This document shows positions 2,436-41,201 of a stretch of 64,000 nt of DNA, in pieces. A model generated the notes under the pieces. It made no database searches and was not told the origin of the DNA. It saw nothing but the letters and a program-made list of their open reading frames with translations. The translations under genes and the position numbers were made by a program. How positions within the stretch are numbered: the first letter of the stretch is position 1; each line of letters begins with the position of its first letter. Source of the DNA: an uncultured bacterium (GTDB lineage Bacteria; Patescibacteriota; Minisyncoccia; Phycocordibacterales; CAIRYW01); assembly GCA_963766885.1 (NCBI GenBank), contig CAVYBO010000002.1:464606-528605 (forward strand). Reading direction: 5' to 3'.

Positions 2436-5210
2436 TTAACCTTTTATCTCCGCAAAAGGATTTGGTTGCGCTGGTGCGGGCTTTGCGGTTTGATATTTTT
2501 TCATAATTTCTGCTTCTACTTCTTTGCGATCTTTGCCATAAGTCAAATACGAAAGTTCTTTGAGCTTTTCTGTACGGGCTATATCGCCTTTTATAAACGG
2601 CAGAGTTTCAATGCTAAACGGCCTGATAGGCTTGCCGTTTGATAGAAGTTTGAGATACGCATTTCTGTTATCGAGATTTACCAAATCAAACTGCTCAAAA
2701 ACCGGCTCAAACTGTTTTTCCAAATATTCTGCGTCTTCTGCTCCCACACGAAATGCTCCAATTGAGCCAACGTTGCCGAAGACCGCGTCTTTGATGTCGT
2801 CTTCAAGCTGGGCGATGAATTGATGAGCGATTGTAAGAGAAAGATTATATTTTCTAGCCTCTGAGAGAATTTGCGAGATTGAATTGGTAGTGATATTTTG
2901 AAATTCATCAATGTAGAGATAAAAATTTGGCATACTTTTTCCAAAAGAATCCGCGCGGGAAAGAGCGGCCATCAGGATTTTTCCGACCAAAATCAGACCG
3001 ATAAGATTGGCATTGATGTCTCCTAATCTTCCTTTGGAAAGATTAACCAAAAGAATTTTCTTGCTGTCCATAATTTCCCTGAAATTCAAAACGGATTTTT
3101 CTTGGGCGATAATCGGGCGCATTATGTCGTTTGAAAGAAAAACATCAAACTTGCTTGTGATGTACGGCACAATGTTTTGAAGCGAAGCTTCCCCGCCTGC
3201 CTTAGCAGCAATTTCGCGCCAAAACTGGACCACTACTGGATTGGTACATTTGGAAAGTTTAAGCTCCCTAAAGGCCTTATCTGACAACACGCGCGAAACA
3301 TCCAGCAAGGTGTTGCCAGTATTCGGATCTTCCATCACCAAAAGTACGGAGTTTCTAAAATACTGTTCAAACATCGGACCTCCAGCTGTCTTCATATCAA
3401 ACAATTTATTGAAAATGCTAAGCAGCTCGTTAACCACAAAAGTTTTTTGCTCCGGATAATTTGGGTCATATTCGAGCATATTGAGAGCCATCGGACGCGC
3501 TGTAAATCCAGGATCAAAGTAAATTAAATCTTCAACACGCTCTTGAGGAATAATTGAAAGAATGTCCTGGATGTCGTTGCCATGCGGATCAATCATACAA
3601 ACACCTTCGCCTCTCGCAATATCCTGCGCAATAATATTTTTAAGAAAAGTCGTCTTACCTGTACCTGTCTGGCCGATAACATACATATGGCGGAGCCTGT
3701 CTTCATCTGACATATAAATATGTGTTTGGGTATTTCTGTCGTTATTAACTCCAATAACAACACCATTTTCTGCCAAGCCAACTGGCGCCGGAGCGGTTCT
3801 GGAACGAGCAGATTTGAGATTTGGCGAAATCAAATGCTCTTGAGGAAAATGGATTATTGATGTTAGTTCAGAAACAGACAGAGGCATGCTTGTTGCTTTA
3901 TTAAACATTCTCCAAGAAAAATCTCTGGCAGTGGCCGCAAATTTTTTGTCTGGTAACTGATGCCAGATAAGAGCTGTGCCGAAAGTGTTTTCAAACTGGC
4001 TGAACGAAGAAACAATTGATGCAAGAATTTCTTCGGCTTTGCTTCTGTTTTCAGCAGATGCAATCACCCGCATATTGACATGCATTATAGGCGAGCTGAC
4101 TTTGGTTTTGATTTCTTCAATGGCAATTTCATTATTTTCTTGATTCTTTTCTCCTGGATTATTTTGAATCGAAGCTTTAGCCTCACCTTTGGCAAGTTCT
4201 TTGATAGTTTTGGAAAATTCTCCGAGGATACTATGACGGACATCAATGGCTCTTTTCAGTGGTGTGCCGTTTTGAATGGCCTGCAAAGCTTGTTTGTAAC
4301 GGCCAATATAACCTTCACTGTCGCGCTCAATTACAAACTGGAGCGCCGCACCCTCACCATCACGATTAATTTTTGAAAAAGAATTTAAGACAACATTTAT
4401 AGGGTCAAAATCAAACTTGTCGTAAGTTTTCAGAGAAAAAATCGGGTTGCCGACAAGGTGTGCTTCGGCTGCAACTGAAATTCCGGAATAATTAAAAATA
4501 TTATAGTCGTCCTTTTTCTCATAAATTTTGGCTTTAGGAAAAACAGCCAGAAGCTGTCTTTCAAAAAGGCTTTTTTTAGCATCTGGAACAGAAATATAAA
4601 AGACCGTCTCGGCAGAACCTTCAGCATTAGCCAACTCCAAAGTTATCGGCTGATTTTCTCCTGCAGGTAAAACACCTTCGTACCACTGCTCCATTGAAGA
4701 AATTATTTCTTTGAGAGGCTTTTCCTTTTCATCAAAGCTATCAGGAAACGAAACTTCAAAAAGTGTAAATTTAAGAGACGAAACTATTTTTTCCTTTTTG
4801 TCTTTTTCATCCAAAAAGCCAGCCTTGAAAAACTGTACCAAAAATCTATGGAAATCATCTTCAAGGTGCGGATTACCAATCATAGCAACCACCGAAAGCG
4901 CATTTTTTAGTCCACGCTCAGAGAGAATTCCAAGAAGCTCTTCCATCTTTGTATCGTGACTTTCTGGACTGAGCTCCAAAGCAATCCCCTTGGCCTCAGG
5001 ATGAATCATCTTATATCCCTTTTCCAAAACTTCATCAGGATTTTGCTTGGCGTATTTTCTGACTTCTTCCCGAATCAGGCTTTCTTTATCAATTTTTTCG
5101 AAAGACCCTGAAAGTTCTTTTTCGCGAATAGCAACTTGCTCTTTGAGATATTTAATCTCATCTTCAGGCGAAGAAAATTTTTGGGCTTCATTAAGTACAG
5201 GTTTTTCCAT
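2436..5210 (-). CDS. large AAA-like ATPase of the HerA/DUF87/VirB4-TraG superfamily, possibly associated with a type IV secretion system (T4SS) or DNA translocation
   Basis: 924 aa. Walker A is GQTGTGKTT, followed by the IDPHG motif typical of DUF87/HerA-type ATPases, with Walker B hhhhDEFQ (LYIDEFQN). There is no N-terminal TM segment. Confidence 0.5.
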   Translation of the reverse strand: MEKPVLNEAQKFSSPEDEIKYLKEQVAIREKELSGSFEKIDKESLIREEVRKYAKQNPDEVLEKGYKMIHPEAKGIALELSPESHDTKMEELLGILSERGLKNALSVVAMIGNPHLEDDFHRFLVQFFKAGFLDEKDKKEKIVSSLKFTLFEVSFPDSFDEKEKPLKEIISSMEQWYEGVLPAGENQPITLELANAEGSAETVFYISVPDAKKSLFERQLLAVFPKAKIYEKKDDYNIFNYSGISVAAEAHLVGNPIFSLKTYDKFDFDPINVVLNSFSKINRDGEGAALQFVIERDSEGYIGRYKQALQAIQNGTPLKRAIDVRHSILGEFSKTIKELAKGEAKASIQNNPGEKNQENNEIAIEEIKTKVSSPIMHVNMRVIASAENRSKAEEILASIVSSFSQFENTFGTALIWHQLPDKKFAATARDFSWRMFNKATSMPLSVSELTSIIHFPQEHLISPNLKSARSRTAPAPVGLAENGVVIGVNNDRNTQTHIYMSDEDRLRHMYVIGQTGTGKTTFLKNIIAQDIARGEGVCMIDPHGNDIQDILSIIPQERVEDLIYFDPGFTARPMALNMLEYDPNYPEQKTFVVNELLSIFNKLFDMKTAGGPMFEQYFRNSVLLVMEDPNTGNTLLDVSRVLSDKAFRELKLSKCTNPVVVQFWREIAAKAGGEASLQNIVPYITSKFDVFLSNDIMRPIIAQEKSVLNFREIMDSKKILLVNLSKGRLGDINANLIGLILVGKILMAALSRADSFGKSMPNFYLYIDEFQNITTNSISQILSEARKYNLSLTIAHQFIAQLEDDIKDAVFGNVGSIGAFRVGAEDAEYLEKQFEPVFEQFDLVNLDNRNAYLKLLSNGKPIRPFSIETLPFIKGDIARTEKLKELSYLTYGKDRKEVEAEIMKKYQTAKPAPAQPNPFAEIKG

Positions 5211-38216: not shown

Positions 38217-38366
38217 TCAATTATATCACCGGAAAATCAATTACCCATCCCAACCCAAAAATTATTTTTCAAATCCTCTGAAAACTTGTAAGCATTGGCA
38301 TGAGAAAGAACACCTAGATAGGATTGTAAGGAGGATTCCATTGTATTTTTTGAAATGGTTCCGTTT

Positions 38367-39323
<957 letters not shown>

Positions 39324-39674
39324 ATGAATGATTTTGATATACCGATTTTTAAAAAATCCTACAATCTGTACAAAGATTTCTACGAGATTCGTTTGTCCGT
39401 TCCCAAACAGGATAGATACACTCTCTGGCAGAAATGCGAAAGCACTTTGATTGAGATTATCGAGCGTATTCTTCTGGCAAGTCAGCAGTCTAAAATGGAG
39501 AAACTTCCTACTCTGGAGAGAACAAGCGTCAAATTGAATTTCCTCCGAGTTTGTATCCGTCTGATGAAAGACACCAAAGCAATCGATACCAAAAAATATA
39601 TTGTCATCGAAGCGCATCTTGATGAAATTGGAAAAATGCTTGGAGGATGGATAAAGTCCACCAAGGAGCGATAA
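39324..39674 (+). CDS. avd: DGR accessory variability determinant (Avd), encoded on the strand opposite to the RT and TR
   Basis: 116 aa, about the size of the Avd four-helix bundle. The C-terminal HLDEIGKMLGGWIKSTKER closely parallels the Bordetella phage BPP-1 bAvd C-terminus (AEVGRILGSWIARVNRKG). Its start ATG (39324) abuts the RT start codon, forming the divergent junction CAT|ATG. Confidence 0.72.
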   Translation: MNDFDIPIFKKSYNLYKDFYEIRLSVPKQDRYTLWQKCESTLIEIIERILLASQQSKMEKLPTLERTSVKLNFLRVCIRLMKDTKAIDTKKYIVIEAHLDEIGKMLGGWIKSTKER

Positions 39675-39676
39675 CA

Positions 39677-39705
39677 GAAACTCCCACTGTAAAAGTGGGA
39701 GTTTC
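39677..39705. promoter_or_regulatory. perfect 11-bp stem-loop between avd and TR
   Basis: GAAACTCCCAC-TGTAAAA-GTGGGAGTTTC. It lies immediately 3' of avd on the plus strand and immediately 3' of TR on the minus-sense TR RNA. Confidence 0.45.
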
Positions 39706-39725
39706 TTCGGATAGAGTTGTGACTG

Positions 39726-39840
39726 CCGGGAGGCGGAGACACTGAGGTTGTCGTTGCGGTTGTTGTCCCAGTTGTTGTTGACGTTCAGACCCTTGGCATC
39801 GAAGTTGCCGAGGTTCACACGGTTGCCATTCGAGTCGAGA
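39726..39840 (-). repeat. DGR template repeat (TR), 115 bp, sense strand is minus
   Basis: Direct repeat of 40200..40314. All 18 mismatches are T on the plus strand, meaning A on the minus strand, in this copy. Its minus-sense translation is rich in AAC codons (NVNNNWDNNRNDN). Confidence 0.88.
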
Positions 39841-40118
39841 AATTGCTTTCTTCCGTCCGCGTCACTGAGATTTGAGGTTTACCATCTTTGCAGATCTATA
39901 TCCTCTCATCTCTGAATTTTATTTGGGAACAATTTTTTTCAAAATATTTCCACTAGAAAAAAGCAAGAAGTTCTCTCTATCCTTGTCGCACTCTGCCGTA
40001 ATCCTTGAACTACTGGCACTCTGGCGAATCTCAGGTGAGATATCCCGCGAACTTGAACCGTAACCCAAGTTGCATTAGCAAGATTTATAAATATTAACTG
40101 GTTGTATGTAAAAGACAA

Positions 40119-40152
40119 GAGCCTCCGGCAAAAAAATTTTGCGCGGAGGCTC
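40119..40152 (-). terminator. intrinsic terminator or GC hairpin downstream of the DGR target gene and VR
   Basis: 9-bp stem GAGCCTCCG/CGGAGGCTC. On the minus strand the stem is followed by TTGTCTTTT. It is 40 nt downstream of the target stop codon. Confidence 0.45.
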
Positions 40153-40190
40153 AAGGATTCAAGAGGGACAAGCCCTCTAGGGTTCAAGTT

Positions 40191-40970
40191 TCACTGCTTC
40201 CGGGAGGCGGAGACACCGAGGTTGTCGCGGCGGCTGCCGTCCCAGTCGTCGTCGACGAGCAGACCCCCGGCACCGAAGCCGCCGAGGATCACACGGTTGC
40301 CATCCGAGTCGAGATCAACGCAGCGAACGTAGACCTTCTCGAACAGACGCTCGCCGGTGGCGAGGAAGTGGCCGATGATGGTGTAGACCATCACTTGCGC
40401 CTTCGGCGTTTCCTCGTCTTTCGAGAGGAGAGCCTGCTGTTCGGTCCAGTTTTTGCTCGTTGAGTCGGCAACGGGTTCCTTGCGGACCAGTTGCCAGCCG
40501 ACTTCGCCTTTGTCCTTGGCGAACGATTCCTTGTTGTACCAGTCCTGGTTGTAGAACGGGCACTTGCTCTTGGCGATGCCACGGATGTCGAGGATCGAGA
40601 GTGGAAACACGGCGACGAGAATGTGCGTGTCCTTGCAGGACCGGAGCACTTCCTCGGAGAACGGAACTTCGGCCAGAGTGGCGATCTGCTGCTTCGAAGG
40701 GTTAACCCCAAAGTACTTGATTGCTTCCTCGATACCGAAGAAGTTCGCTCCCATGATTTCGCGGGCTTTGAGCCATTGCGGATTCAGGCTTGTGGATGAT
40801 TTGTCCGACAGCCAGAGATTGTCCACTGCAAATCCTGCGAGTCTAGTAAGATACTCCTGATCGATGTTGATACGTTCTGCTACTGCATCGGCGTGATCGC
40901 CGAGTGTAACCCAGAAGCGTTGTTGTGCGCCGTTTATTTCACCGGCTGGAACTTGAGTCCAATTTTTCAT
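40191..40970 (-). CDS. DGR target (variable) protein. The ORF is open up to a GTG at 41093, and the ATG at about 40970 is the preferred start.
   Basis: GC is about 52%. The C-terminal ...NRVILGGFGAGGLLVDDDWDGSRRDNLGVSASRKQ is encoded by the VR. There is no signal peptide. Confidence 0.68.
   Translation of the reverse strand: MKNWTQVPAGEINGAQQRFWVTLGDHADAVAERINIDQEYLTRLAGFAVDNLWLSDKSSTSLNPQWLKAREIMGANFFGIEEAIKYFGVNPSKQQIATLAEVPFSEEVLRSCKDTHILVAVFPLSILDIRGIAKSKCPFYNQDWYNKESFAKDKGEVGWQLVRKEPVADSTSKNWTEQQALLSKDEETPKAQVMVYTIIGHFLATGERLFEKVYVRCVDLDSDGNRVILGGFGAGGLLVDDDWDGSRRDNLGVSASRKQ
40200..40314 (-). repeat. DGR variable repeat (VR) forming the 3' end of the target gene
   Basis: 115 bp and 84% identical to the TR. 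Every one of the 18 differences falls at a TR adenine on the coding sense. It encodes the last 38 codons of the target ORF. Confidence 0.88.
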
Positions 40971-41201
40971 GATGCGTGGTTTCTTTCTGTTAGCTCTTTT
41001 GAAATTATCGGGAGAGCGACTAGTGAGAATACGATCTCGGATATTACGTCTTGTCTTTGTGAGACGAGCTTTATATGTCCTTCGAAAGGGCACAAAAAGC
41101 TCGTCTCAAGCAGTGATAACTTGTCAAAGAAGTTTGGGTATATTATATCACATTTTATAGACTTTTGCAAGTTCAAAATAACTCCTATTTTATAATTAAA
41201 T

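Follow-up and report, generated by a model that had tools for sequence, protein, structure and literature searches.

An ordinary CPR DGR of architecture B3 with a candidate self-contained TR RNA

Introduction

DGRs of CPR bacteria were reportedly first surveyed by Paul et al. in 2017. To our knowledge, everything that is understood about the priming of DGR cDNA comes from BPP-1, in which essential RNA lies downstream of the template repeat (TR). BPP-1 has architecture B1 (mtd-avd-TR-brt), and all of its genes are co-directional. About 140 nt downstream of its TR are essential, and this spacer RNA begins with an 11-bp stem-loop that binds Avd (10.1101/2023.10.23.563531). Handa et al., in a 2024 preprint (10.1101/2023.10.23.563531), place the 11-bp Avd-binding stem-loop right after the BPP-1 TR, find such stem-loops in 207 of 278 Avd-containing DGRs, CPR members included, and read them as Avd-binding elements, not as terminators. 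The spacer between TR and brt of BPP-1 is also the Rfam family RT-10, which together with RT-16 was described among structured RNAs that lie beside reverse transcriptase (RT) genes (Weinberg et al. 2017, PMC5737381).

Gene order in DGRs has been catalogued by Wu et al. (NAR 2017/2018, PMC5758913). In the text of that paper, architecture B3 is written 'TR-(avd)-RT', the parentheses denoting the reverse strand, and B3 makes up 90% of that study's CPR DGRs. It is also stated there that for some DGRs two or more transcription units are required.

Organization of the locus

The DGR described here lies in a window of 64,000 nucleotides, the whole stretch of DNA that was analysed. Its genes, repeats and hairpins are as follows.

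38237..39323, minus strand: DGR RT gene (RVT_1, E=1e-27; IPIGNLTSQ motif read from the translation)
39324..39674, plus strand: avd (accessory variability determinant), 116 aa, identified by HMM and fold
39676..39706, no strand assigned: perfect GC-cored hairpin with A-rich/T-rich arms, lying where TR and avd converge
39723..39840, minus strand: TR, 84% identical to VR, with mismatches at TR adenines
40110..40152, minus strand: terminator-like hairpin and T-tract after the target gene, read from sequence
40162..40178, minus strand: short GC hairpin (GAGGG/CCCTC), which the IMH-like block precedes by about 20 nt, read from sequence
40191..41093, minus strand: DGR target (variable protein) gene, an open ORF of 300 aa with VR at its 3' end
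40197..40314, minus strand: VR, found by alignment to TR, ending 4 nt before the target stop codon
40200..40216, minus strand: IMH-like GC-rich block of 17 nt at the 3' end of VR, read from the alignment

Thus RT, TR, VR and the target gene are on the minus strand and avd is on the plus strand, which agrees with the earlier note on this DNA in that avd is inverted relative to all the other parts. The TR and VR align over 118 nt, and 18 of their 19 differences fall at TR adenines when read on the minus strand, a pattern that points to past activity. The IMH-like block has the same sequence as TR positions 39727..39743 (IMH*-like), and its role is suggested by analogy with the BPP-1 model given in PMC5758913. 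In BPP-1, an inverted repeat follows the IMH; the putative counterpart in the window is the GC hairpin at 40162..40178, which follows VR only and has no equivalent after TR. The target gene may start at GTG 41093 or at an internal ATG. Searches of its product against Pfam and NCBIfam gave no match, and no second VR was found in the window. The target ORF, VR, TR, avd and the RNA 5' of TR described below are each intact.

The window RT was used to scan one genome from each species; the 80 closest loci obtained in this way are 47-67% identical to it and sit beside TR/VR pairs. They come from MAGs titled mostly Paceibacterota, Parcubacteria, Saccharibacteria, Yanofskybacteria and similar Patescibacteria, with a few other or generic labels. 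A divergent avd lies directly upstream of RT in 78 of these 80 loci, and the other two have no upstream DNA; an arrangement that recurs to this extent is not due to chance. The window DGR is likewise of the B3 type, since TR and RT are separated by an avd of opposite strand and there is no other accessory gene. The description of this layout as non-canonical in the earlier note is correct with respect to phage BPP-1, but it does not stand as a claim of an unusual arrangement: set against the architectures catalogued in the text of PMC5758913, the layout is B3, the one shared by the relatives. From its sequence, the window DGR is an ordinary CPR/Patescibacteria member of architecture B3, and its layout is not novel. 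Since this layout is the catalogued norm for CPR DGRs, the gene order that had been flagged is of little weight in itself; it is the RNA that may interest DGR specialists.

The window and the B3 DGRs of CPR bacteria have in common the order and strands of target/VR, TR, reversed avd and RT, a Patescibacteria host, and a single target gene whose VR class is unrecognised by Pfam. Compared with the text of Wu et al. (PMC5758913), the back-to-back starts of avd and RT, the hairpin shared by TR and avd, and the structured RNA 5' of TR are additions. With BPP-1 the window shares an IGxxxSQ RT, the same Avd fold, a TR and VR that differ at adenines, and a hairpin after VR that follows a GC-rich IMH-like block. 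There are three differences: avd is inverted in the window; BPP-1 has a functional spacer RNA of about 140 nt between TR and brt, whereas in the window TR is followed by about 15 nt and a hairpin; and the window lineage has a large conserved RNA domain 5' of TR, on the opposite side of TR from that of BPP-1.

The reverse transcriptase gene

The window RT carries the [I/V]GxxxSQ motif together with RVT_1, the combination that defines the DGR clade of RTs, though frameshifts occur towards the 3' end of the gene. In the sequence at hand, the ORF ends at 38367 and encodes 318 aa; homologues have about 349 aa. There are two 1-nt deletions, in the A-runs A6 (38406..38411) and A4 (38382..38385). Homologues aligned to the window RT change frame at these lesions, about 45 conserved C-terminal residues are cut off, and the addition of one A to each run recovers the conserved C-terminus, which contains SLQSYLGVLSHANAYK. 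Such lesions denote either a pseudogene or a homopolymer sequencing error. In addition, a (CT)15 repeat (38735..38764) in the coding sequence is translated as ERERERERER in the loop just before IPIGNLTSQ, where the homologues have only 'ERR' or other short sequences. A slip of one unit would shift the frame, and hence the repeat could be a phase switch or a sign of decay.

It is possible, though we consider it somewhat short of probable, that the element has decayed: the layout would be standard and this copy inactive through the RT frameshifts and the slippage-prone (GA)15 tract. The missing C-terminal segment includes the conserved SYLGxLxHA, two separate single-A insertions are required to restore it, and the neighbouring long ORFs (924 aa and 1152 aa) are intact, which argues against homopolymer errors across the whole assembly; that inactivated DGRs are common is also noted in the text of Wu et al. 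(PMC5758913). What speaks for a functional element is that every part other than RT is intact and that the 18 adenine-position differences between VR and TR attest to past activity. Moreover, both lesions are inside homopolymer runs, the typical place of sequencing errors. Decay of this copy would be compatible with the transcriptional organization that we propose below, so that the two do not exclude each other.

A structured RNA upstream of TR

The region of about 250 nt between the target gene and TR is strongly conserved and structured among related loci. Its elements in the window, and the sequences paired with or preceding it, are listed here.

39844..40084, minus strand: conserved structured non-coding RNA of about 240 nt, directly 5' of TR (RNAalifold, covariation)
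40070..40051, minus strand: helix P1 of the 5' RNA
40027..39986, minus strand: helices P2/P3
39965..39955 with 39854..39844, minus strand: helix P4
39951..39926, minus strand: helix P5
39912..39908 with 39871..39867, minus strand: helix P6
single-stranded parts of the 5' RNA, minus strand: conserved motifs ACTTCTTG and AAATAAAATTCAG
39975..39982, minus strand: segment GGATAGAG of the 5' domain, which pairs with the tail after TR
39709..39716, minus strand: segment CTCTATCC of the tail that separates TR from the hairpin, paired with 39975..39982
40091..40118, minus strand: candidate TR-RNA promoter (-35 TTGTCT at 40118..40113, a 16-nt spacer, -10 TAATAT at 40096..40091)

RNAalifold applied to 39 loci gives 42 base pairs, 35 of which show compensatory changes. 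In this alignment 96.3% of the cells are paired, as against 72% after shuffling and 35-48% when the partners are slid, and double changes occur in 434 cells compared with 137 in shuffles. A covariance model, limited to 135 positions of the 3' subdomain, matches 28 loci outside its training set, and the match is always immediately 5' of TR and in TR sense.

The 5' domain also pairs across TR with the short tail that follows it. The mean energy of the duplex between the 5' segment and the tail is -10.2 kcal/mol for cognate and -7.7 kcal/mol for non-cognate combinations, and the cognate mean was reached in none of 10,000 permutations. The two halves covary among loci: CCGG..GAGGAG occurs with CTCCTCACCGG, and TAGAGATGGAA with TTCCATTTCTA. 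The GGATAGAG/CTCTATCC duplex is also present in the single-sequence MFE structure of the whole RNA. When the 120 nt upstream of TR were paired with the tail there was no cognate signal, duplex energies of such long sequences being uninformative; the true partner of the tail is further upstream than those 120 nt. This pairing across TR resembles the avd:Sp 'cPRT Stop' duplex of BPP-1.

The window RNA matches the Rfam family RT-16 (RF03019) at 39845..39965 on the minus strand with 27.1 bits (E=0.05-0.33). Because the gathering score of RT-16 is 50, the window RNA is not a member of that family as it is currently defined. The two have in common an AUAAAAUnCAG motif and part of the helix pattern, and RT-16 may be a relative of the 5' RNA from another DGR lineage. 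No RT-16 match was obtained in 24 related loci at the gathering score or in 7 loci at E<=1. More generally, no Rfam family reached threshold on the TR region of the window or of 34 related loci (two sets of 17), nor in 7 loci searched by E-value. A match to the Rfam Thr-leader was discarded, as it merely mirrors the terminator-like hairpin. The searchable literature, which does not extend to Paul et al. 2017 or to the supplements of Wu et al., gave no description of the 5' structured RNA, the tail duplex, the shared hairpin or the start-codon junction, and the 5' RNA domain may be undescribed.

A candidate promoter precedes this RNA. In 28 of 33 related loci, a hexamer that agrees with TATAAT at 5 or more of its 6 positions (A2 and T6 among them) is found in the same 19-nt interval, compared with a background of 7.6%, and 21 of the 28 lie at exactly -30/-29 from helix P1. 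The window's own -35 and -10 hexamers are weaker, with 4 of 6 matches each; they were assigned by eye and are absent from the output of the promoter scan. The predicted transcription start, which follows from sequence patterns like our other promoter and terminator calls, is near 40084. In related loci, hairpin and T-tract elements analogous to that at 40110..40152 are found upstream of the TR-RNA promoter, and the terminator-like hairpin of the target gene usually precedes the -10 box. The terminator scan does not list 40110..40152 because its loop is 11 nt. In the window, the T-tract of this hairpin overlaps the putative -35 hexamer.

The hairpin between TR and avd

The earlier note placed a hairpin at 39677..39705. 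It is real: the stem is perfect, 11-13 bp long, and has a predicted energy of about -25 kcal/mol with its flanks. TR is in RT sense in about 40 of the related loci, where it ends 33-70 nt from the avd stop codon, and a perfect hairpin of at least 8 bp is found in the gap between TR and avd in 38 of 46 loci (median stem 12.5 bp, loop 5). Hairpin sequences differ from locus to locus and the perfect stem, of about 9-17 bp, is kept. The stem mostly ends between -2 and +2 nt from the avd stop codon, with an A-rich outer arm on its 5' side and a T-rich one on its 3' side. In loci of a sister clade, among them L062, L063 and L071, hairpin and avd stop codon overlap, and a T-tract is seen on the TR-sense side only. 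L057 has a similar hairpin after TR even without avd beside it.

These properties make the hairpin a candidate bidirectional intrinsic terminator common to the TR RNA and avd. In the window, a 7-bp GC core is followed by T-rich TTTCTGTT in TR sense and TTTCTTCG in avd sense; both T-tracts are imperfect, and a strict terminator scan of the window does not list 39676..39706. Across loci, the last 4 stem bases together with the 6 bases downstream contain on average 5.2 T of 10 in TR sense and 4.1 of 10 in avd sense. The hairpin resembles the stem-loop of Handa et al. (about 9-11 bp) in its position just downstream of TR, and by this analogy may also bind Avd. It differs in that the stems of the window lineage are perfect and longer (median as above), whereas the BPP-1 stem has flipped-out bases, and in that A-rich/T-rich arms and a position adjoining the avd stop codon are features of an intrinsic terminator. 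The two roles, termination and Avd binding, are compatible.

The junction between avd and RT

The avd ATG (39324..39326, plus strand) is back to back with the RT ATG (complement of 39321..39323), which gives the sequence CAT|ATG. Homologues align from residue 1 of both Avd and RT, so the adjoining starts reported earlier are borne out. In 10 loci the two starts overlap as CATG (a distance of -2 nt), in 7, the window among them, they adjoin (0 nt), and in another 38 they are 1-16 nt apart; in other words, the distance lies between -2 and +16 nt in 55 of the 78 loci with a divergent pair. Hence the back-to-back junction is a conserved trait of the lineage and not a peculiarity of the window.

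The earlier note found divergent promoters in about 0 bp unusual. The junction itself is confirmed, but its oddness is reduced by the way in which genes of this organism begin. Of 44 window genes (ORFs of 150 aa or more), only 5 have a Shine-Dalgarno-like core in the 22 nt that precede the ATG, and most have A/T-rich sequence there. As Shine-Dalgarno sites are hardly used in the genome, a 0-bp junction needs no intergenic space for ribosome-binding sites. In many window genes a TATAAT-like hexamer lies 7-13 nt ahead of the ATG instead, a hint that mRNAs of the organism have short leaders or none.

Presumably the first codons of avd contain the RT promoter and those of RT the avd promoter, or else the mRNA leaders are very short. 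Neither RT nor avd showed a conserved promoter, and the antisense-avd alignment contains no conserved -35/-10 hexamers, only codon-periodic conservation. The promoter scan of the window gave promoter-like matches at 39268..39296 (plus strand) and 39485..39456 (minus strand); these are unconfirmed because conservation there is only codon-periodic. As a separate observation, more distant relatives (L062, L063, L064, L065, L071 and L073) have runs of 8-11 G in the short region between avd and RT, at about position 3960-4000 in most, and the window's own clade has none.

Transcription of the locus

In the earlier note, two transcriptional routes were offered for a TR RNA facing an inverted avd: read-through of antisense avd into RT, or a separate short transcript that ends at the hairpin. 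The second fits the -10 box, the 5' RNA, the tail duplex and the hairpin. We propose that the locus would comprise four transcription units, as follows. The target gene would be transcribed with its own terminator. An autonomous non-coding DGR RNA of about 415 nt would start near 40084 on the minus strand from its own sigma-70-type promoter; it would consist of the structured 5' domain of about 240 nt, TR, and the short tail paired back to the 5' domain, and would end at the hairpin 39676..39706. The avd gene would be transcribed from the plus strand and end at the same hairpin, acting as a bidirectional terminator. RT would be transcribed divergently from avd, each of the two genes having its promoter and an unstructured A/U-rich leader inside the partner's first codons; such overlapping leaders of avd and RT would be workable because Shine-Dalgarno sites are hardly used in this organism. 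The folded DGR RNA would next be bound in trans by Avd and RT, which would produce adenine-mutagenised cDNA that replaces VR, as in BPP-1. We assign this whole model of an autonomous TR RNA in a B3 DGR a probability of roughly 0.7. What counts against it is that a DGR RNA with nearly nothing downstream of TR is an unproven, putative design.

The rival is read-through. In that case, one long minus-strand transcript would run from TR through antisense avd to RT; the hairpin would be the Avd-binding stem-loop, and the 'Sp'-type primer, the stop duplex and the RT-binding stem-loop would be encoded in antisense avd. The precedent of BPP-1, whose essential spacer RNA follows TR and has an Avd-binding stem-loop at its start, is in its favour, as are the stem-loops in 207 of 278 Avd-containing DGRs, CPR included (Handa et al., 10.1101/2023.10.23.563531), the imperfect T-tracts of the hairpin on which the terminator scan is silent, and the fact that a separate RT promoter was not found. 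Elements of this kind in antisense avd can be looked for, and since those of a BPP-type spacer would have to sit in the 3' third of avd, this part is of particular relevance. We aligned 45 avd and RT pairs by codon and compared observed with expected identity at synonymous codons, using only pairs with less than 70% protein identity; the comparison senses conserved sequence and not conserved structure. The ratio is flat along avd (0.95-1.29) and 0.97-1.12 in the 3' third among these 45 loci, so a hidden element was not seen and the 3' part has no excess conservation. A modest elevation (1.24-1.35) at RT codons 1-15 could equally reflect A/T-rich codons near the start. Furthermore, the 120 nt upstream of TR pair with cognate antisense avd no better than with non-cognate.

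The position of the conserved elements also argues against read-through, as the promoter, the structured domain and the tail duplex all precede the hairpin, and the sister clade has retained hairpin and T-tract in TR sense even where they fall within codons of avd. In addition, the TR unit is inverted relative to RT in one related locus (L057:3282-5250): the 5' RNA, TR and hairpin lie opposite to RT and are co-directional with avd and the target gene, while avd and RT still diverge from one common junction. As the TR module can be flipped with respect to RT, TR need not be co-transcribed with RT. On balance we consider read-through unlikely, and regard the need for it as disfavoured by the flat synonymous sites of avd, the flip in L057 and the conserved elements before the hairpin. 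An inverted avd thus does not imply antisense read-through.

If the autonomous RNA is accepted, a broader proposal can be made for the B3 DGRs of CPR bacteria, which we offer tentatively, as it is rather less likely to hold than the model of the locus: the functional non-template RNA, a counterpart of BPP-1 'Sp', would be 5' of TR, where a domain of about 240 nt would clamp the tail of TR by a covarying duplex of about 5-12 bp and may take part in priming, and the whole would be a self-contained transcript of about 415 nt from promoter to terminator. If true, this would explain why avd can be placed between TR and RT in inverted orientation, and why the TR module can flip independently, as in L057. 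A large lineage that apparently has a conserved domain upstream of TR, and an RNA that ends just after TR, would be a natural test of which RNA elements a DGR requires. The proposal would also define RNA boundaries for the in vitro reconstitution of a CPR DGR, and provide a covariance model with which TR RNAs could be annotated in metagenomes.

Identity of Avd

The plus-strand ORF was correctly recognised as Avd in the earlier note. It scores 85.6 bits against NCBIfam NF033474 'DGR protein Avd' (curated cut-off 80) and 66.3 bits against Pfam PF22296 bAvd (curated cut-off 40). A single-sequence AlphaFold model is a four-helix bundle (pLDDT 89.1), and comparison with known structures gives Bordetella phage Avd, 4dwl, as the best PDB match (TM 0.82-0.88, rmsd 1.7 A), followed by the Avd chains in 8ub7 and 8ube, two cryo-EM entries of the DGR RNP. 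No second avd, co-directional or otherwise, was found in the window, where the next tblastn match has E=1.7; the Avd fold and the lack of another avd-like sequence both uphold the assignment. The idea that this is a chance ORF or a generic four-helix-bundle protein, the true accessory gene being elsewhere, draws on the weak direct sequence similarity to bAvd (E=0.28) and on a fold shared with the 23S rRNA intervening-sequence protein family, and it is hardly credible and was rejected, given that the ORF scores above the curated equivalog cut-off of DGR Avd, that 78 of 80 loci have a homologue of it, 27-84% identical and always beside RT, and that the window offers no alternative.

Other features of the target region

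Target genes are GC-rich far beyond VR, over 40320..40900 in the window and over 500-700 nt 5' of VR in related loci. The median GC content is 59% in the 500 nt upstream of VR, compared with 40% in RT/avd and 43% in whole loci, and the excess is seen in 40 of 45 loci. Because A and T are both depleted, the excess is not simply due to adenine mutagenesis.

In about 9 loci (L010, L011, L012, L017, L025, L028, L032, L042 and L044) VR and the target gene are on the strand opposite to TR. VR is then about 1.2 kb from TR, and the structured RNA stays with TR, not with VR.

An Rfam search found no LOOT RNA (RF03000) in the window. In five related loci, LOOT RNA occurs 1-3 kb from the DGR with 63-81 bits (L003:5162-5289, L013:5974-6093, L018:7015-7136, L025:1477-1596 and L059:5081-5198), and in L003 and L059 it is directly downstream of RT.
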